Below, piece after piece: positions 3,785 through 43,455 of a stretch of DNA of 64,000 nt (positions within the stretch are counted from its first letter, which is position 1; every line of letters begins with the position of its first letter). The notes under the pieces were generated by a model that made no database searches, was not told the origin of the DNA, and saw only the letters and a program-made list of their open reading frames with translations. The DNA is from a virus (lineage: Duplodnaviria; Heunggongvirae; Uroviricota; Caudoviricetes), in the IMG/VR virus record IMGVR_UViG_3300012933_000388, positions 1 to 64,000 of that record. One strand, given 5' to 3'. The translations under genes and the position numbers were made by a program.

Positions 3785-6700
3785 TCATGCGCCACGCAAC
3801 ATACAACCGTTGAACCAAGTAATAGCTGAGTTATTAACTGCCGTAACAGTTACGTTCCCGCCCGAACCTTGCTGAACGTATATTTCAAAGTAATCACCAG
3901 TGCCGTTTGCATACACCAATGAGCTTACTTGCATTGCCCAGAAGTTGGTAGCAATTTGCGCTCCTCTCTGGTTTATGCCACGCTTGTATTCTGTACCGTT
4001 TTTGTAAAGAATAATCATTATTTCGCCAGTGCCACTGGCACCATCTAGTCGAACTTCTGCATTCAATTGATAATAGCCTTCAACCGTAGGGGTGAATCTC
4101 GAGCTAGCGTAATTATTATTGGTGTCAAACTCTTCTACTTGAAATAGGACCTTGGTCTGAACATCAGTTGGAATTGTTTGGAGTGTGTTGTTTGCATATG
4201 CGGAGAATGCAGGACCATTGACTGCTTGCTTACCACCGACGGTGATCGGGCCTGGAACATTTAGCGCGCCCGTATCAGATAAAGAAAATATTGTTGCACT
4301 ATACGCACTGTTAATAATTTCTATTCCACCAACACTATTCAATCGGAACGATTTAGTGTTTGCGGTTGCACCAGCAGTTTTATTTGTGACCTTTAAGAAG
4401 TCAGCATACCCAGTACCGCCTTGCGTATTGGAAGCATTAACAATTAATGGATAACCGGTTGGAGTTGCACCAGCATATGTCAATGTTAAAGTATTGCTGT
4501 TGACGTTGACGGCAGAGATAGCACCGACGAAGCTAATGTTGTTTGAAGTGAGTGACGCAACACCATTAGCATATGCATACTGATTGGCAGCAATGCCGCT
4601 AAGGTATAGTGCGTTGTTAGCAGTGCCGGATATGTTGTCTGGTATCACGATCCCTGACACTTGCTCAACGTTAACAATAACTGCTGGTGTACCAGGTACT
4701 GTTGGTGTTGTACCGGCTGCATATGAAACCAATTTCACATGGCCGCCTTCGGATGAGTGCATCACCTGAACTCTATCACCAGCGTTGACAGTCACCATGA
4801 ACGGAGTAACAGCAATCAAGCTTCCAGGATCCTGACCAGTGTTCTTTCTATTGACTGAAAATCTACTATTAGTGTTTGTTTGATCGGTGCCGTTGATTCG
4901 AATCCACACATTGACGTCGTCGTCGGAATTACCATTATTTTCATACTGGTTGCTATATTCAATGTGGTATGTACCGCTATGTGCAAAGACTATATCGTTG
5001 TTGCTACCGACCGTTACGCCGTTTGTTCCATCATATGATGCAGTAATAGGAACGACGTATGCGTTGGTTGTATTAGATAACGCAACGTTAGCGCCGTTAT
5101 AGTAGAACGCCCCAAAGTATCCAGTAGTGAAGTTGTTAGATGTTCCGTTCTGGTTAATCCACTGGCTAAGCGCAGTGTTGTATGTCAACACTTGATTGTT
5201 CAACGGACCAGTAATAGTAACATCAGTCAGACTATCGATCGTAGTTGGAATCGTTGGCTTATTCTTAATGAAGTCAATCGCTAATGTATTCGATTGATTC
5301 CAATCAGTTTGAATCTGAGATGCAGTGGCATTAGTCCAATATACTCCTGTACCATTGGAGGCTAACACTTGGCCAGCAGATCCTTTAGCATTGTTTGCTG
5401 TAATCGATACAAGGGTTGCGTTGTTGGTATTAATGCCTGTTGAGTCGATAGTTGCTGTAGTGATTAGTGTATTGCTACCTACAGGCGTTGTTTGGAATGT
5501 TATCTTTGTGCCTGTATTGGCAGTATAGAAGTCTTCAGCAGCGTTCAAGTTGATACGAACAATACTACCTACGTACGTGTTGCTACCTGCCGCCCACCCT
5601 TGAGCTGTCAGACGCAACAAAGTATCGCCCGACAGCGTTGGTAGCGGTGAAGCTGCTGTTCCTCGAGCAGCCCTACCAGCAACAGATGCATATGCACCAG
5701 CACCATATGCATCAAAACCAATACGTGCTGGCTGCCCATCTTGCGCAACCGCTTGGATTAACGATCCAGAGAAGTTGCGAGGTTGAATGTCTCCTGTACT
5801 GGATCCGACTATTGTTAATGCCGCCTGTGATGTTAGTAGTGTTGCTGGAGTGTTGATAGTTACCAGACCCTCACGAGTTACACCGAATGTTTGGTTGCCA
5901 GTATCATAGCTGTTTACTACAATCGGGCGGTTGATGACAAGATTGCCAGTCCCTAATGTCGCTCCAATATAAAACGTTGCTTCTGTATTAGTTAACTGTA
6001 TGTAATTGTTTTGCAATAAAAAGTTACCAACACGAAGACCGCCATTAGATTGTTGTGTTGTATTTGCAATCGCAATATAGAATATACCATTAGCAAGTGT
6101 TAACTTTTGATCTGGAAACCCTGTCGTCTGATCTGCAAATGTAACAGAATTACCACCAACCCAAATGGACTCCCAGCGGTTGGTATTATTGCCGAGCGAG
6201 TATGTTAAGCTAGTATTCGGAATGATGGATGATGGAACGTGCAACCAGTCGACTGTTGTATTAGCGCTGATTACTTGATTACTAATTGTAATAGTTGTAC
6301 CGTCAATCTTTACACCACCCTTAGTGGTAGTAGAAGCAGTAGGGAGGACATAACCACCAGGGCCCCCGCCCGTTGGATCTTGTGCGGTCCACTTCTTGAT
6401 AGATTCATTATATGTAAGCACCTGGCCGTCTGTAGCACCAAGAACAGACGAACGAGCAACATCATCCAAGTCTCTTAACCATACTGCACCACCGCCTGGC
6501 CCGGTCATGGAAATCTTACCAACCCAACCTTCCAACAATTTCAACTTCTGTTGAATGTCCTTCAAGTCTCTACCAGTAACTTCTGGAGCAGGCTGGACGA
6601 ACATCGAAGGCGGTTGACCCTTCTTCTTAATTTTCTTAGCTGCCTCTTTGGCAAGTGATGGCTCTTCAATGGGCGCAAGGATCGCTTCCTCAATCACTTC

Positions 6701-7078
6701 TGGAATCTCAACAATACCTTCCAGGACATCCTCAACCTGTTGACCTTGGTCCGCATCCTCGGCGATAGTCACTTGTGGTTCGTCGGAAACTGCATTAGCC
6801 TTGATATCGTCAATCTTCGCGAGCACAGTCGCAAAACGATCTAACAGAGCCTGTTCTTCCGCGCTCTTTTGCTTTTCTTCAGCCATCAGCTTGCTAATCT
6901 GGCCAGAAAGGTCAGCGAACGTAGATTTGAAAACAGCCTTACGTTCTTCTTGTAAAGCAATCTGTTTCTTTTCTTTTTGTTCTTCAGCTATAATCTGGTC
7001 AAACACAGACTGTTCTGTCTCTACACCGAGACGTTCGTTCATTTTGACAATGAGGCGGAGTTCTTTTAGTTTATTCAT
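3785..7078 (-). CDS. long tail fibre protein
   Basis: 1097 aa. N-terminal coiled coil, Gly-rich hinge, STTTKGGVKIDG fibre repeat, long Asn/Thr/Gly-rich beta region, and two C1q/TNF-like jelly-roll-like segments at the C-terminus. Confidence 0.75.
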   Translation of the reverse strand: MNKLKELRLIVKMNERLGVETEQSVFDQIIAEEQKEKKQIALQEERKAVFKSTFADLSGQISKLMAEEKQKSAEEQALLDRFATVLAKIDDIKANAVSDEPQVTIAEDADQGQQVEDVLEGIVEIPEVIEEAILAPIEEPSLAKEAAKKIKKKGQPPSMFVQPAPEVTGRDLKDIQQKLKLLEGWVGKISMTGPGGGAVWLRDLDDVARSSVLGATDGQVLTYNESIKKWTAQDPTGGGPGGYVLPTASTTTKGGVKIDGTTITISNQVISANTTVDWLHVPSSIIPNTSLTYSLGNNTNRWESIWVGGNSVTFADQTTGFPDQKLTLANGIFYIAIANTTQQSNGGLRVGNFLLQNNYIQLTNTEATFYIGATLGTGNLVINRPIVVNSYDTGNQTFGVTREGLVTINTPATLLTSQAALTIVGSSTGDIQPRNFSGSLIQAVAQDGQPARIGFDAYGAGAYASVAGRAARGTAASPLPTLSGDTLLRLTAQGWAAGSNTYVGSIVRINLNAAEDFYTANTGTKITFQTTPVGSNTLITTATIDSTGINTNNATLVSITANNAKGSAGQVLASNGTGVYWTNATASQIQTDWNQSNTLAIDFIKNKPTIPTTIDSLTDVTITGPLNNQVLTYNTALSQWINQNGTSNNFTTGYFGAFYYNGANVALSNTTNAYVVPITASYDGTNGVTVGSNNDIVFAHSGTYHIEYSNQYENNGNSDDDVNVWIRINGTDQTNTNSRFSVNRKNTGQDPGSLIAVTPFMVTVNAGDRVQVMHSSEGGHVKLVSYAAGTTPTVPGTPAVIVNVEQVSGIVIPDNISGTANNALYLSGIAANQYAYANGVASLTSNNISFVGAISAVNVNSNTLTLTYAGATPTGYPLIVNASNTQGGTGYADFLKVTNKTAGATANTKSFRLNSVGGIEIINSAYSATIFSLSDTGALNVPGPITVGGKQAVNGPAFSAYANNTLQTIPTDVQTKVLFQVEEFDTNNNYASSRFTPTVEGYYQLNAEVRLDGASGTGEIMIILYKNGTEYKRGINQRGAQIATNFWAMQVSSLVYANGTGDYFEIYVQQGSGGNVTVTAVNNSAITWFNGCMLRGA

Positions 7079-7082
7079 GGAT

Positions 7083-7093
7083 AATATTTATCT
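7083..7093 (-). promoter_or_regulatory. late-promoter-like motif AGATAAATATT, N6 from ATG
   Basis: Minus-strand AGATAAATATT is identical to the motif at 51912-51922. GATAAATA ends 6 nt before the tail-fibre ATG and no SD is present. Confidence 0.35.
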
Positions 7094-7094
7094 G

Positions 7095-7123
7095 TTGCCA
7101 ATTCCGATTGGTCACTATACAAT
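7095..7123 (+). promoter_or_regulatory. sigma70-type promoter
   Basis: TTGCCA-N17-TACAAT, 30 nt upstream of ATG 7154 with AGAGG SD. Confidence 0.5.
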
Positions 7124-7153
7124 AGACGCCAACACACTTTCAAGAGGTATACA

Positions 7154-7519
7154 ATGTTTTTTGGTAAATCTGCACAATTGCAACACGCAGAGACGCGTAT
7201 TGATTACTTGTCAAAAACAATCGATGAGTTGAACGCTCAGATCAAACAGATGCGTGAAGATGCGGAGAAAGAAAAAGAATCCGATCTACAAACTTCCACA
7301 TTTGCGATCGACTTTAATATTATGCGTGCATTTGCAATTGAGCGTAATATACACAACGGCGTTGTTTGTACTATTGTTGGACACTTCATTTCGGAGCCAG
7401 TCGCATTTACCGATGGTAACGTTGCTGCTAAAGAAGTGACTCGTGAATGGTATATGTATTGCAGCCAAGAACAACACGAGAAGTTGGTTGCAGAATTTAA
7501 CGCATACAAAAAGAAATGA
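7154..7519 (+). CDS. hypothetical protein
   Basis: First plus-strand ORF after the divergent promoter. Coiled-coil-like N-terminus. Confidence 0.6.
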   Translation: MFFGKSAQLQHAETRIDYLSKTIDELNAQIKQMREDAEKEKESDLQTSTFAIDFNIMRAFAIERNIHNGVVCTIVGHFISEPVAFTDGNVAAKEVTREWYMYCSQEQHEKLVAEFNAYKKK

Positions 7520-7695
7520 TTGCTCGAGCATTACTGACCTTCTTGGTCTTATTTGCTGTCTTTTACTTTGGTATTAATGGTTGGCGCCACATGGCTGGCA
7601 AAGACCAATGGCAGTTGGTGAAATCCGTAACTTACAGTATAATCTGTTCAGTGCTTACAATTGTGGTGCTGACCTTCTTTGTAATTTTGTTCTAA
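7516..7695 (+). CDS. small membrane protein (59 aa, below ORF-track cutoff)
   Basis: ATGA overlap with the upstream stop. Two hydrophobic segments (LLTFLVLFAVFYFGI and IICSVLTIVVLTFFVILF). Confidence 0.45.
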   Translation: MIARALLTFLVLFAVFYFGINGWRHMAGKDQWQLVKSVTYSIICSVLTIVVLTFFVILF

Positions 7696-7703
7696 GGAAA
7701 AAT

Positions 7704-8495
7704 ATGAAACGCTTATTTGTAATGTTGATGGTAATTGGTGGCGCATTGCTCACTGGTTGTACCCGTATCGAGACTGGTACTGTTGGTTTGCGTGTCGATA
7801 TGTCACGACAGATCCAAGGTAATGAATTACAACCTGGTACATGGAACCAGACGTTGATCGGTAGTGTGCTTGAATTCCAAGTGCGATCGATTCCTACAGG
7901 TTGGGAAAACTTGACTCCACAAACCGCTGATAACTCTACACTGAAAGACTTTGACGTCAATATTGTGTATGAAGTTAATCCAGCATCTGTCTCTGAATTG
8001 TGGACTACACAATCACGAAGCTTCCACACATATGAGCATGGCGATTATATGCTGATGCGTAACTATATGTCTCAGGTATTGAGCTCTGCTGCAGCTAAAG
8101 CTGTTCGTAAGTACAAGGCATTGGAAGTTGCTGACAATCGTGAGAACATCGAAAAAGCAATCCACGACATCATGGTCAATATGTTGACTGAAGAAAAGCT
8201 CGAGAAAGCTCTTACTATTAGCCAGGTTCGTGTCACTAGTGCCACTCCTGCCGATGACATTGTAGCATCTGCTAACAACGCTGTCCGTGCTCAGAACGAT
8301 CTGAAGACCAAGCAAGTCGAAGTACAGATTGCTCAACAAGAAGCTATCCGTATCCAAACTTTGAACAGCAACTCACAAGCTATTCCATACATGAATGCAA
8401 TGGCTCAAATGGAAATTGCTAAAGCTATCCGTGAAGGTAAGGTCCACACAATTGTTGTACCTCTAGACTTCAAGGGTATTGTAAACGTCAAGTAA
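7704..8495 (+). CDS. SPFH/band-7 domain lipoprotein
   Basis: Lipobox MKRLFVMLMVIGGALLTGC. GTVGLRVD...PGTWNQ...TADNSTLKDFDVNIVYEV is the SPFH pattern. The ORF-track start 7581 was rejected because it overlaps the small ORF. Confidence 0.7.
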   Translation: MKRLFVMLMVIGGALLTGCTRIETGTVGLRVDMSRQIQGNELQPGTWNQTLIGSVLEFQVRSIPTGWENLTPQTADNSTLKDFDVNIVYEVNPASVSELWTTQSRSFHTYEHGDYMLMRNYMSQVLSSAAAKAVRKYKALEVADNRENIEKAIHDIMVNMLTEEKLEKALTISQVRVTSATPADDIVASANNAVRAQNDLKTKQVEVQIAQQEAIRIQTLNSNSQAIPYMNAMAQMEIAKAIREGKVHTIVVPLDFKGIVNVK

Positions 8496-8505
8496 GGAGT
8501 ATATT

Positions 8506-8676
8506 ATGGGAATGTTTGATTCATTGACAGATTTTGCGGCAGCAGTTGTTGCCTCTCCAGTAACCTTGGCGGCGAAAGCCGTTGAAGTAACGGTGGACGC
8601 GGTTGCAGCTGTACCAGATGTGGCTGAGAAGGCTATCGAAAATATCGAGCAAGCCGTCGATAAGATCGGAAAATAA
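8506..8676 (+). CDS. small hypothetical protein (56 aa)
   Basis: Strong RBS AAGGAG 7 nt upstream. Ala/Val-rich helical sequence. Confidence 0.4.
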   Translation: MGMFDSLTDFAAAVVASPVTLAAKAVEVTVDAVAAVPDVAEKAIENIEQAVDKIGK

Positions 8677-8677
8677 T

Positions 8678-8884
8678 ATGGGATGGAGTTCTGGTGGTGA
8701 ATTGTTAGGTGATATCGTTCTGTCCACACAGAAGGCCGTCCCTCCAAAGTACCGTAAAGAGTTATACAAGCTGTTTATCAATCATTTTGAGATGCACGAT
8801 TGTGATGTGATCTACGAATGTAAAGGACTTGACAAAGAGTTCGATAAAGCATATAATGAGTTATACCCTGATGAGGATGAATGA
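8678..8884 (+). CDS. hypothetical protein
   Basis: ATG lies 2 nt after the upstream stop. The ORF-track N-terminal extension overlaps the previous ORF. Confidence 0.5.
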   Translation: MGWSSGGELLGDIVLSTQKAVPPKYRKELYKLFINHFEMHDCDVIYECKGLDKEFDKAYNELYPDEDE

Positions 8885-9057
8885 TGGATATTAAAAAGAA
8901 AATTACTGCTGCTCAGAAACGAGTACAGAAAAAGATCGATGCGTCTTTTGCTAAGTTGGCAGAAGAAACCAAAGCTGCATTTGAAGCAGCTCGCACAGAG
9001 AAGAAATAACCCCCGCAGTGTGCGTAGGGGCAATGTCAATAAGTCCTCTCCGATAAG
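8884..9057 (+). CDS. small hypothetical protein (57 aa)
   Basis: ATGA-type overlap with the upstream stop. Lys-rich helical N-terminus. Confidence 0.3.
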
Positions 9058-9066
9058 GAATATATT

Positions 9067-9318
9067 ATGAAACAACGTGGATTTACACTAATTGAGTTGA
9101 TGGTAGTTATTACTATTGGTATGGTTGTTGTCAGTATTGGCCTTGGATTCCTTGGTGCAACTTCTGGCAATAGCAATATCAGCGTAGGTATCAACGGTGT
9201 AACCGAATCCCGTTGTATTGAGGGTTACAAGTTTGTACTTAGTGCAAGCCATGAGGCGCCTCGTCAGATCATTGACGAGTTCGGTAAGGGTGTTCGATGC
9301 AACGCAATGGTGAAATAA
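9067..9318 (+). CDS. type IV pilin-like / pseudopilin protein
   Basis: Class III signal MKQRG|FTLIELMVVITIGMVVV with Gly-1, Phe+1, Glu+5 and a hydrophobic helix. RBS AAGGAA. Confidence 0.7.
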   Translation: MKQRGFTLIELMVVITIGMVVVSIGLGFLGATSGNSNISVGINGVTESRCIEGYKFVLSASHEAPRQIIDEFGKGVRCNAMVK

Positions 9319-9319
9319 T

Positions 9320-10279
9320 ATGGAACAAAAAGTGAAACGCGGCTTCAAGCGTAAAACAATTGAGCAAACAATTCGCAACCACATCAAAGGCTGGTTGGCT
9401 TCAATCGATGACATCGAATTGCGTGATGAAGTTAAGAAGCACTATATTGTAACTGGTGGTGCTATCACTTCTATGTTGCTTGGCGACTTGCCGAACGATT
9501 ATGATGTATACTTGGATGATGTTGATGTCGCTGCTAAGCTGGCCAACTATTACATCAGCCGATTGTCTACACCTGACAATGAGAAGACTGCTGTTCCGAT
9601 CGTTGAAGTTCCACCAGAACGTAACCGTGTGACTATTAAAGTTAAGTCATCTGGTGTTGCTGGTGAAGATATCAATCAAGCAGACTACCAATACTTTGAA
9701 CAGTATGCTGATGGCGGTCAACGCTCTGCTTCATACTTGGATGCCATGGCATCGCGCGAGACAGGTGCATACAAAGCACTTGCTATTACTACTAATGCAA
9801 TCACGTTGTCTGATAAGACTCAGATCGTGTTGCGCTTTGTTGGCCCTGCCAACGTTATTCACAAGAACTATGACTTCGTCCACACAACCAACTACTTTAC
9901 AGAGTCAGAGGGTGCTGTATTTAACGAACCTGCTCTGGAATCCATCCTTGCCCGAGAACTCAAGTATGTCGGTAGTCTCTACCCGATTTGTTCGATCTTC
10001 CGGATCAAGAAATTCATCAAACGTGGGTGGACAATTACTGCAGGTGAAATGCTCAAGATTGCTTACGACATCAGCAAACTCGATCTCGACAATCCGCTAG
10101 TATTGCAAGAGCAATTGACTGGTGTTGATGCTGCATACTTTGCTCAGATCCTTCAGTTGATTCGACAAGAAGGTAAGCCAATCGATCGTACATATTTGTT
10201 CGAACTGGTTAACCGAATCTTCGATGAAGATTGGGAAGTTGAGCAAGCGATTAACGAATCTGGAATTAATTTAGCATGA
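9320..10279 (+). CDS. Pol-beta superfamily nucleotidyltransferase (CCA-adding/poly(A) polymerase head-like)
   Basis: VTGGAITSMLLGDLPNDYDVYLDD matches the GGxxRDxLLG-x4-DxD head-domain pattern. Confidence 0.5.
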   Translation: MEQKVKRGFKRKTIEQTIRNHIKGWLASIDDIELRDEVKKHYIVTGGAITSMLLGDLPNDYDVYLDDVDVAAKLANYYISRLSTPDNEKTAVPIVEVPPERNRVTIKVKSSGVAGEDINQADYQYFEQYADGGQRSASYLDAMASRETGAYKALAITTNAITLSDKTQIVLRFVGPANVIHKNYDFVHTTNYFTESEGAVFNEPALESILARELKYVGSLYPICSIFRIKKFIKRGWTITAGEMLKIAYDISKLDLDNPLVLQEQLTGVDAAYFAQILQLIRQEGKPIDRTYLFELVNRIFDEDWEVEQAINESGINLA

Positions 10280-10560
10280 ACTACTCTTTAGACTACGACA
10301 ACACATACACGACAGATCCTGTAATGTGGGATGCGCTTATCGATATGATGAAACGCTATGGCCACAAGGTGTATGTTGTTACTATGCGTACACCCGAAGA
10401 AGGCGAAGAAGTACGCAAGTACCTCGCGGATAAGGTTGAGATGGTCATCTGCACATCACGTAAGGCGAAACAAGAATACGTCACTAACATGAATGTCCGA
10501 ATTGACATTTGGATTGATGACATGCCTTGGTTCATTCTCAATGATGCGAGACAGCTATGA
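10276..10560 (+). CDS. hypothetical protein
   Basis: ATGA overlap with the upstream gene. IWIDDMP resembles a HAD motif IV, but the protein is too short to call. Confidence 0.5.
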   Translation: MNYSLDYDNTYTTDPVMWDALIDMMKRYGHKVYVVTMRTPEEGEEVRKYLADKVEMVICTSRKAKQEYVTNMNVRIDIWIDDMPWFILNDARQL

Positions 10561-10781
10561 AGAATTGGATCCTAACACAATGTGCTAAGGTACTACCATA
10601 CCATCGTTGGGCAGCTTTATTGTTTGTTCAGGTTTGGGTGTGGCCACAAATTCTCGACCCACATATGCCCGCAGGTGTTGGGTTCAGTACTATCGTCACA
10701 ATGTTCTTCTGCATAGTTTACAACATTATCAAACTGGTCATTGCATATGAAGACAGACAAAATTCAAAAGCTGTTAGATAA
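10557..10781 (+). CDS. membrane protein
   Basis: ATGA overlap. Two hydrophobic helices. Confidence 0.5.
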   Translation: MKNWILTQCAKVLPYHRWAALLFVQVWVWPQILDPHMPAGVGFSTIVTMFFCIVYNIIKLVIAYEDRQNSKAVR

Positions 10782-10938
10782 AGAAGCTCGACTGGGTAAC
10801 GAGCGTTACGATGTCGTACAGCAAATTAAGCAGCTACGCGGCACTGAGCCACCTGTGTGTTGGGGTCAAGACGATTGCTCTACAATGATGTTGGTCCGCT
10901 GTCCGTGGCGCATCGATTGTGGTAGTCCTAAGGATTGA
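10741..10938 (+). CDS. hypothetical protein
   Basis: Overlaps the previous ORF by about 40 nt, so the start is uncertain (ATG 10741 or 10747). Confidence 0.4.
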   Translation: MHMKTDKIQKLLDKEARLGNERYDVVQQIKQLRGTEPPVCWGQDDCSTMMLVRCPWRIDCGSPKD

Positions 10939-10963
10939 CAAGTTTGCCTAGTGGCAGTATAAT
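10935..10963 (+). promoter_or_regulatory. perfect-consensus sigma70 promoter, candidate leaderless
   Basis: TTGACA-N17-TATAAT. ATG 10970 begins 6 nt after the -10 and no SD is present. Confidence 0.7.
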
Positions 10964-10969
10964 TGCTAT

Positions 10970-11251
10970 ATGAAATTTCTTAAAATCGAAACCATCGAAG
11001 AGGGCATGATCCCTCCACGCGCTCGCATTGCCCTTATTAAGGTAGTCGACACATTCATTAAAGATTGCCCAATTAGCTACGCAATCGTTTTGCGTCTTCC
11101 GTTCAAACGATGGAAGACCTTTTTCAGTATGCGCAACTTCGATAACGATCAAGGGTGGTGCGTGTATACTTGTTTCCTAACATACCACAAATGGCGTCGT
11201 GAATTCAAACGAGGCGGCATGTGGGTCCCAATTGAAACGGATGACCTATGA
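10970..11251 (+). CDS. hypothetical basic protein
   Basis: ORF starts at the predicted transcription start. Coding-like composition. Confidence 0.5.
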   Translation: MKFLKIETIEEGMIPPRARIALIKVVDTFIKDCPISYAIVLRLPFKRWKTFFSMRNFDNDQGWCVYTCFLTYHKWRREFKRGGMWVPIETDDL

Positions 11252-42882: not shown

Positions 42883-43025
42883 TGAAAAGCATGAAGCAAG
42901 CAGCTAATTTTAAGATGCGTGGTAGAATTACCATGCGTTGCCATTGCCGCTGCTGCGAGGTTTTTAATCCGAAGTGGGCATATCGTATGAAAATGGCTGC
43001 CAAGGATATAAAAGAATTGTTGTAA
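42882..43025 (+). CDS. small basic Cys-rich protein (47 aa)
   Basis: TAATG junction. CHCRCC motif. Ends immediately before the tmRNA acceptor piece. Confidence 0.35.
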   Translation: MKSMKQAANFKMRGRITMRCHCRCCEVFNPKWAYRMKMAAKDIKELL

Positions 43026-43080
43026 TCCCTTCAAAGAGAAGGACTTCTGGACGCGGGTTCGACTCCCGCCATCTCCACCA
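43026..43080 (+). ncRNA. ssrA: tmRNA acceptor piece (3' half of a permuted ssrA gene); 5' boundary uncertain
   Basis: GCGGG-TTCGACT-CCCGC T-arm, 3' acceptor strand CATCTCC and encoded ACCA (43077-43080). Complementary to GGGGATG at 43219. Confidence 0.8.
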
Positions 43081-43218
43081 AAAGTAATCACCGAAGTGAC
43101 TAGGAATAAAAGCGGTCATCGAGTTAGGGCATCAGGTCAAGACTGTGTTAGTAGTGTGGACAGCCTCCCTAACCGACCACTAAGGCGAGTGGTTGAGAAT
43201 GCAACGATTACTTTTGAT
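43081..43218 (+). other. structured intervening segment of the permuted tmRNA precursor
   Basis: AAAGTAATC (43081-89) pairs with GATTACTTT (43206-14). Internal helices GTTAGGG/CCCTAAC and ACCACT/AGTGGT. Confidence 0.6.
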
Positions 43219-43455
43219 GGGGATGCCATGGTTTCGACAGGGGTAGATATTAGAGACGGCAACACGGTAGGCGATGACCGCAAATCAAGCAAATAAAAGT
43301 AACTGCAAACGAAAGCTCTTACGCATTGGCAGCCTAAACGCTGACTAGGGTTTCGGATGGTTTCCTCGTAACAGAATAACCATCCACTAATATATCAGAC
43401 ACGTTGCCCATTAGAGGCCCTGTATGGTCTAGCAGTACCATCAAAGAAACTGCTA
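43219..43455 (+). ncRNA. ssrA: tmRNA coding piece (5' half of the permuted ssrA gene); 3' boundary uncertain
   Basis: GGGGATGCCATGGTTTCGACAGGGG 5' end. Tag ORF GCAAACGAAAGCTCTTACGCATTGGCAGCCTAA (43305-43337, ANESSYALAA*). Helix 43355-62/43378-85 and H-type pseudoknot 43424-43455. Confidence 0.8.

Follow-up and report, generated by a model that had tools for sequence, protein, structure and literature searches.

The locus at 9067..9318 raises the question of why a T4-like phage should carry a gene whose product begins as a prepilin does, and what the rest of that product would contribute. The window, by which we mean the whole 64,000-nt stretch of DNA analysed, belongs to a T4-like myovirus by its gp6/gp7/gp8-type baseplate wedge genes at 57-64 kb, and the phage is presumably lytic. 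The open reading frame starts at the first ATG past an in-frame stop, and its product (MKQRGFTLIELMVVITIGMVVVSIGLGFLGATSGNSNISVGINGVTESRCIEGYKFVLSASHEAPRQIIDEFGKGVRCNAMVK) was found as first described in an earlier note, with 83 aa, an MKQRG start and two cysteines (C50 and C78). The mapped features are collected in Table 1.

Table 1. Features of the prepilin-signal gene and its upstream context, in coordinates of the window
Feature	Position	Strand	Details and basis
Prepilin-signal protein gene	9067..9318 (stop codon included)	+	83 aa; ORF call, N_methyl and TIGR02532 above cut-offs
Ribosome-binding site AAGGA	9055..9059	+	7 nt 5' of the ATG; direct sequence reading
Class III signal motif	9067..9096	+	Leader MKQRG, then F(+1) T L I E(+5)
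Hydrophobic TM helix, alpha1-N equivalent, residues ~11-33	9097..9165	+	AF2 helix
Gly/Ser/Asn-rich linker GNSNI, residues 34-38	9166..9180	+	AF2 helix end, lower pLDDT
Phage-specific head, residues 39-78	9181..9300	+	Small beta-sheet; conservation 0.78, AF2
Invariant head cysteines	Cys50 = 9214-9216; Cys78 = 9298-9300	+	Head also carries the DEFGKG motif
Two-TM protein, 59 aa	7516..7695	+	Context; directly 5' of SPFH in 27 of 28 SPFH-bearing loci
SPFH/Band_7 lipoprotein	7701..8495	+	Context; Band_7 E 8.4e-15, PHROG 200 'lipoprotein', lipobox LLTGC
Perfect sigma-70 promoter TTGACA-17-TATAAT	8829..8857	+	12/12; 210 nt upstream of 9067..9318

To examine the N-terminus, the product was compared with the curated profiles for prepilin-type (class III) signals. 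It scored 37.4 bits against Pfam N_methyl (PF07963; cut-off 21.2, E 1.6e-9) and 25.8 bits against TIGR02532 (cut-off 16.3). Both curated cut-offs were passed, and the missing N_methyl match that the earlier note, in proposing this search, had named as a ground for giving up its reading did not occur. The signal itself was found as claimed there, with a basic leader, Gly at -1, Phe at +1, Glu at +5 and a hydrophobic helix, G5 and E10 being invariant. A six-frame scan of the 64 kb returned a single class III motif, that of 9067..9318, and no further pilin-like genes. The same kind of scan found no prepilin-peptidase (A24) motif anywhere in the window, so that processing would need a host enzyme, and no pil or gsp genes were detected in domain scans of 7154-10560 and a few large ORFs.

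Conservation was measured as the mean top-residue frequency over 42 unique sequences. It reached 0.91 for residues 1-10, fell to 0.44 in the TM core (11-30) and 0.48 in the linker (31-38), and rose again to 0.78 in the head (39-78); the sequence of the TM core varied freely yet stayed hydrophobic. G5 (-1), L8 (+3), E10 (+5), C50 and C78 were invariant among the 42 homologs, and the +1 residue was restricted to F, I, V, Y or M (F6 in 83%), substitutions that prepilin peptidases tolerate. The class III signal of this family is real and under clear purifying selection, with cleavage predicted after Gly5, between 9081 and 9082. Glu at +5 is dispensable for prepilin cleavage and required for pilin assembly, and since it is this residue that is invariant, something more than simple anchoring is suggested.

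The likeness to pilins was found to end with the helix. When the product was compared with the NCBIfam pilin and pseudopilin equivalogs, it fell below every cut-off (score/cut-off in bits: GspH 23.2/80, PpdD 23.9/138, GspG 15.3/88.85, ComGC 14.3/75), and the matches spanned residues 1-30 only. Profile matches in the PDB were likewise N-terminal only, and the top sequence matches were short pilins such as Geobacter PilA-N. In the AF2 model built from a 75-sequence alignment (mean pLDDT 81.4, head blocks 82-85), a helix at residues 8-33 with pLDDT up to 96 was followed by a short Gly/Ser/Asn linker and by strands at 37-41, 44-51 and 54-59 plus short C-terminal bridges; an earlier model from a 50-sequence alignment had the identical topology. 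The continuous alpha1 helix of ~50 residues and the four-stranded alpha-beta roll that identify a pilin were not seen, as the helix ends at about residue 33 with no alpha1-C. Fold searches detected no structural relative of the head and no likeness to pilin heads. The two invariant cysteines (C50 and C78) were present, and many type IVa pilins have a C-terminal disulfide D-region. The earlier description of a type IV pilin- or pseudopilin-like protein therefore stands for the N-terminal ~30 residues and lapses for the remainder; by profile and model, the product is to be regarded as pilin-like over those residues only.

Host homologs were sought in one genome per species across 185,579 bacterial and archaeal species. 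At least 25 matches were confirmed, of which at least 23 covered the N-terminus only, while two weak longer matches (L060 and L074) reached residues 72-78 at 38% and 26% identity. No convincing full-length bacterial or archaeal relative was present among the matches listed from these genomes, and a host origin of the head found no support among them.

The family itself was large. Among 5.8 billion proteins searched, 731 full-length homologs were found, ~80-93 aa long and 57-83% identical. Most had a precomputed N_methyl match, and the names on them were solely automatic 'prepilin-type N-terminal cleavage/methylation domain' labels. The gene was carried by 50 IMG/VR viral contigs, the longest of 374 kb, and by long metagenome contigs with phage gene content, and the 60 loci found by an alignment-based locus search included about nine further contigs with a family member. 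The family signature is a 'GxNGxxExRCIxGY...DEFGKGxxC' head that occupies the C-terminal ~40 residues with two Cys. It is placed behind an N-in/C-out membrane anchor in proteins of ~55-130 aa in total, a build that the product of 9067..9318 fits. Across the 42 unique sequences the invariant head residues were G41, G44, R49, C50, Y54, Q67, D70-E-F-G-K-G75 and C78. When the window copy was compared with those of other phages, the median was 59%, against 45% for the SPFH neighbour and 43% for the two-TM neighbour over the same phage pairs. The ORF at 9067..9318 is thus a real gene under constraint. Literature searches returned no paper on this head family.

The gene sits in a plus-strand run of small ORFs that starts at 7154, divergent from a fibre-like gene of 1,097 aa (3785..7078, minus strand); the latter has the Gly/Thr/Asn/Ser runs of a tail-fibre-like protein and no PHROG match at E <= 0.001. 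The pilin-like gene had been placed among small membrane and lipoprotein genes (7516-9057), which holds for the two-TM and SPFH genes of Table 1 but not for the three ORFs that follow them (8506..9009), these being small, unconserved and soluble-looking by sequence. When the genes upstream of the pilin-like gene were compared across 56 loci, SPFH was found in 28, an AAA+ ATPase in 21 and neither in 8, with both present in one locus only (L007). In the 21 AAA+-type loci, the ATPase of ~340 aa lies upstream and a UvsW-like helicase downstream. Because about half of the loci are without SPFH, its linkage is best described as lineage-specific synteny and not as an obligatory partnership, which is ruled out by these counts, and the functional tie to the SPFH lipoprotein that had been implied does not hold in general. 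In some relatives (L004, L082) a gene for a ClpP/NfeD-like protease is close by, an arrangement reminiscent of the SPFH-NfeD operons of bacteria; the NfeD/ClpP-like, c8 and c9 genes found near relatives were absent from the window. On the 3' side, the ORF at 9320..10279 (+, 319 aa) has a precomputed match to Pfam PF26128, Gad2, the Gabija anti-defence nucleotidyltransferase. In our Pfam scan it matched only the PolyA_pol head, and weakly; its match to PHROG 4400, of unknown function, had E 1.4e-48. In L002 and L003, a Gad2-family gene of 220 aa precedes the SPFH module. PADLOC defence models gave no matches for the 9067..9318 gene or its neighbours.

To see when the gene might be expressed, promoter motifs were sought over the 64 kb. 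Two perfect sigma-70 promoters were found, that of Table 1 and one at 10935..10963 (+), against 0.05 expected, and both lie in the small-gene cluster. The T4-type late promoter TATAAATA was absent from the whole window, where 2.8 occurrences were expected. The late promoters of this phage must therefore differ from those of T4, and the timing of 9067..9318 is read from the sigma-70 matches alone. With a perfect sigma-70 promoter upstream and no T4-type late motif, early transcription by host RNA polymerase is likely, and the promoter at 8829..8857 likely serves the ORF at 8881..9009 together with the pilin-like gene.

The product is most likely an early periplasmic effector tethered to the inner membrane, in which the functional constant would be the phage-specific, Cys-bridged head. 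It would insert in the inner membrane with the N-terminus cytoplasmic and the C-terminus periplasmic, and host prepilin peptidase would remove the MKQRG leader, leaving a disulfide-bridged beta head of ~40 residues that a short flexible linker holds to the periplasmic side of the membrane. The mature protein would then share the membrane pool of the host pilins and pseudopilins, with the head acting as the effector and the class III signal as its delivery and targeting device. The likeliest target in this clade would be the assembly apparatus of the type IV pilus or of the T2SS, where the N-terminal helix and Glu+5 may dock as a pilin's do; the protein has neither the alpha1-C nor the pilin head that filament extension requires. 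The likely benefit would be superinfection exclusion, secondary phages being kept off or out of the infected cell. Interference with the pilus or the T2SS, or superinfection exclusion, is plausible and is our leading guess; the full account, in which an envelope effector processed by the host peptidase most probably hinders such assembly and so limits secondary infection, is the one we favour, though tentatively.

Several of the above results speak for this account. The signal passes curated cut-offs and keeps Gly-1 and Glu+5 invariant, at 0.91 against 0.44 for the TM segment; the window copy exceeds its neighbours in conservation (59% versus 45% and 43%); no convincing full-length host relative appeared among the matches listed, and every type of anchor in the family is predicted N-in/C-out. 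The gene has a perfect sigma-70 promoter 210 nt before it, and a gene of the Gad2 family, of counter-defence type, adjoins its 3' end. The hosts of phages with class III ORFs form a pattern in the same direction. Among cultured phages, such ORFs were found in those of Vibrio, Synechococcus, Pseudomonas, Aeromonas, Acinetobacter, Xanthomonas and Acidovorax and in one Salmonella record, and none was found in Escherichia, Klebsiella or Shigella phages (which supply 1,039 of the 2,442 phage records with a match to the gp6 baseplate protein of the window). This contrast in host range is suggestive only, as the records are highly redundant and the tblastn matches weak (E up to 10). Published work gives a precedent in prophage FimU mimics (PMC12952977), and T4-like cyanophages bind type IV pili, which raise the rate of phage encounter (10.1101/2025.09.20.677514). 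Against a target in the pilus or the T2SS stand the absence of any fold likeness between the head and pilin heads, and the absence of pil or gsp genes (in 7154-10560 and a few large ORFs) and of a peptidase motif (in the whole window).

A further objection came from the head itself. A head-only phmmer search was carried out with residues 36-83 against 1.84 billion cluster representatives, and 67 matches were obtained, of which 66 were small proteins that carry the head C-terminally; P0122, a 992-aa protein with eight head-matching repeats, was dismissed as a low-complexity repeat artefact. A canonical class III signal was present in 37 of the 66 head clusters. Another seven had a degenerate signal in which Gly-1 was lost and Glu at +4/+5 kept (e.g. 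MR-ITIIE), 18 had an unrelated hydrophobic anchor or signal peptide (64 clusters being classifiable), and four appeared to be truncated ORF calls. Non-pilin anchors thus account for about a quarter to a third of the clusters. Among the 18 plain anchors, P0140 was lipobox-like and P0179 looked Sec-like. All anchor types were predicted to have one topology, with the N-terminus cytoplasmic and the head periplasmic. Since the head-only search finds the same head on class III, degenerate and unrelated anchors, the head is the constant unit of the family and the prepilin signal its commonest delivery device.

The anchor types were also scattered over head similarity. Fitch parsimony gave 22 changes against 22.6 with shuffled labels, and for most plain-anchor variants the closest head relative was a class III protein, at 59-74% identity. 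The anchor has clearly been exchanged repeatedly across the head family, the number of swaps being uncertain from a poorly resolved tree of 40 residues. Because plain anchors interleave with class III relatives, the head can work without the prepilin signal and possibly without the pilus machinery. One plain-anchor variant (L102/L103) belongs to a lambdoid-type phage, in whose nin region it is flanked by a primosomal gene and by NinG/Rap; the contig also carries a CI-like repressor and a large terminase. Two others, P0132 and P0174, were on contigs of only 1.3 kb that are uninformative on context. A sub-lineage with the N-terminus MR-(V/I)TIIE was seen in L055/L098 (IMGVR_UViG_3300047548_000827) and P0130. 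There Glu+5 and its spacing are kept and cleavage is unlikely because Gly-1 is lost, and this sub-lineage may be informative on the role of Glu+5 in the head family.

These exchanges speak for the class III segment being an anchor only, an N-in/C-out tether borrowed from host pilin genes for a head whose target has nothing to do with pili or the T2SS. The window protein may be compared with small phage-specific envelope proteins of superinfection exclusion, such as T4 Imm and Sp, T5 Llp and lambdoid Cor, which are membrane- or lipid-anchored and face the periplasm; expressed early or from prophages, they protect the infected cell. The head might be an inhibitor of incoming-phage injection like T4 Imm/Sp, a lysis-timing sensor of antiholin type, a protein directed at peptidoglycan or at factors of the outer membrane, or one that works with the SPFH module of the phage. 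The 18 clusters with plain anchors among class III relatives, one of them in a lambdoid nin region, speak both for this explanation and against a pilus or T2SS effector. A head of orphan fold without pilin resemblance, a helix that ends at ~33 with no alpha1-C, and the 28 loci in which the two-TM/SPFH pair precedes the gene also favour an anchor. On the other side, SPFH is missing in about half of the loci, and no holin or endolysin genes were identified within 7154-10560. More generally, Gly-1 and Glu+5 are invariant in an otherwise variable helix, and for a plain anchor the burial of an acidic residue comes at a cost. That the seven degenerate variants without Gly-1 still retain Glu at +4/+5 points the same way, back to the pilin pathway. 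We consider a mere tether rather unlikely.

It was also considered whether the protein might be a true filament subunit that, once processed, would polymerise with those of the host in a type IV pilus or pseudopilus and be displayed along the fibre or at the tip, where it would mask or replace receptor surfaces. The earlier note had held that such functions are known from a few temperate Pseudomonas phages that use unrelated proteins, a statement that is now outdated. Prophage FimU mimics (P-FimU) of F10-like Pseudomonas phages are built into the tip of the pilus, and phages that bind there are blocked (Sztanko et al., Cell Rep 2026, PMC12952977); non-temperate phages also have PilA-like ORFs, some truncated to ~60 residues (PMC12952977). 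The P-FimU proteins are full-length homologs of a host minor pilin that function in twitching, differ greatly among themselves and are expressed from prophages (PMC12952977). The window protein resembles them in being phage-encoded with a prepilin-type N-terminus, and differs in other respects: it has 83 aa, no alpha1-C and strong conservation, the phage that carries it is T4-like, and the head is found on non-pilin anchors as well and has no convincing host homolog among the matches listed. Full-length homology to a host pilin, the criterion for P-FimU and P-PilA, was likewise not found among the matches listed.

With these precedents (PMC12952977), a canonical class III signal with invariant Glu+5 and two invariant cysteines resembling the D-region disulfide of pilins would be consistent with a subunit. 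Very short polymerising pilins also exist, such as Geobacter PilA-N of 61 aa, which shares the class III signal and alpha1-N with the window protein and has little beyond them. The match to it is confined to the N-terminal helix, however, and unlike the window protein PilA-N is a polymerising structural pilin of the host that has a separate PilA-C partner. The AF2 model has neither alpha1-C nor an alpha-beta roll, the fold searches were negative and every pilin or pseudopilin equivalog cut-off was missed. Homologs with plain anchors could not be extracted into a filament, so that polymerisation is arguably unneeded for the function of the family. Finally, the head is conserved and not diversifying, unlike the receptor mimics of the P-FimU kind, a point that also tells against a pilus effector. 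A filament subunit is improbable on this evidence.

Other short class III ORFs of large lytic phages were compared with the window protein as well. KVP40.0030 (66 aa), the 'pilin' of Synechococcus phage ACG-2014f (127 aa) and PHROGs 13280 and 3433 share with it a basic leader, GFTLIE and a hydrophobic helix, and these uncharacterised proteins come, like the window gene, from early or accessory regions of T4-like phages. By hhalign, their homology to the window protein extends over the N-terminal ~35-40 residues only and the heads are unrelated. PHROGs holds the 'pilin' family 3433 and several unnamed families that match the N-terminus. KVP40.0030 of Vibrio phage KVP40 (L085 2501..2701) lies between dexA and td, as in KVP40-like phages, and its deposited annotation is a match to the Pfam pilin family PF00114. 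A peptidase decoy, in which a strong early prepilin-like substrate saturates or inhibits host prepilin peptidase and halts all pilin and pseudopilin maturation, would suit these several unrelated class III ORF families of large lytic phages (KVP40.0030, the cyanophage 'pilin', PHROGs 13280 and 3433), a cleavage motif that is the best-conserved segment (0.91) and the high early expression suggested by a perfect consensus promoter, but it is very improbable, as it leaves the strong conservation of the head and the non-pilin anchors unexplained and Glu+5 is unnecessary for recognition by the peptidase.

Returning to the envelope effector that acts on pilin assembly, what is already known and what is new can be separated. 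Phage pilin mimics are known from the literature, and annotations of short class III ORFs in T4-like phages go back years. New is a family with an orphan, phage-confined head on modular anchors, which comprises at least 66 clusters at 50% identity and occurs in T4-like, jumbo and lambdoid-type phages. That the head is an unrecognised phage periplasmic effector domain, one that mostly rides the host prepilin pathway to disable the type IV pilus or the T2SS in lytic infection, is a wider claim and for now a doubtful one. If true, it would describe a general superinfection-exclusion or host-takeover mechanism that depends on the pilin pathway and is distinct from the receptor-mimicking P-FimU, carried by a head domain that occurs widely among environmental phages of the T4-like, jumbo and lambdoid kinds. 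Protection of cells by imitation of a pilus subunit has been shown only recently, and only where a prophage protein copies a minor pilin of the host. The head family would extend the pilin-mimic idea to lytic T4-like and jumbo phages, which are abundant in environmental metagenomes, and with a differing design, a host-type export and assembly signal being fused to a phage-invented head that also occurs on ordinary anchors. This modularity offers a means to ask what the prepilin signal adds beyond membrane tethering. Should the head target something unrelated to pili, its proteins would still make up a family of phage envelope effectors that is both new and widespread.

Two cultured phages were found to carry true members of the family, both annotated as hypothetical proteins. 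UTS52068 of Synechococcus phage BUCT-ZZ01 (host S. elongatus PCC 7942) is a full-length homolog at 49% identity, and WEM34242 of Xanthomonas phage X1, found also in phage BUDD, was aligned by hhalign with a probability of 98.8% over 74 columns including both Cys. They are divergent from the window protein, and in X1 the head has drifted over its second half. Xanthomonas campestris and S. elongatus PCC 7942 are piliated hosts, and since cultured phages with family members infect them, the role of the head is directly testable.

As for the phage of the window, megablast of 7000-11000 against INPHARED gave no close cultured relative. The best gp6 matches were to Caulobacter phage Cr30 (40%), the Sinorhizobium PhiM12 group (37%), Stenotrophomonas phage DLP6 (36%) and Pelagibacter phage HTVC008M (34%). 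A permuted two-piece tmRNA was identified at 42974..43428 (+), called by ARAGORN as tmRNA* with the tag peptide VTANESSYALAA. It matched Rfam beta_tmRNA (RF01850) with 140 bits against a gathering threshold of 84, and tmRNA_permuted (RF04321) with 147.5 bits, and this tmRNA type suggests a betaproteobacterial host.
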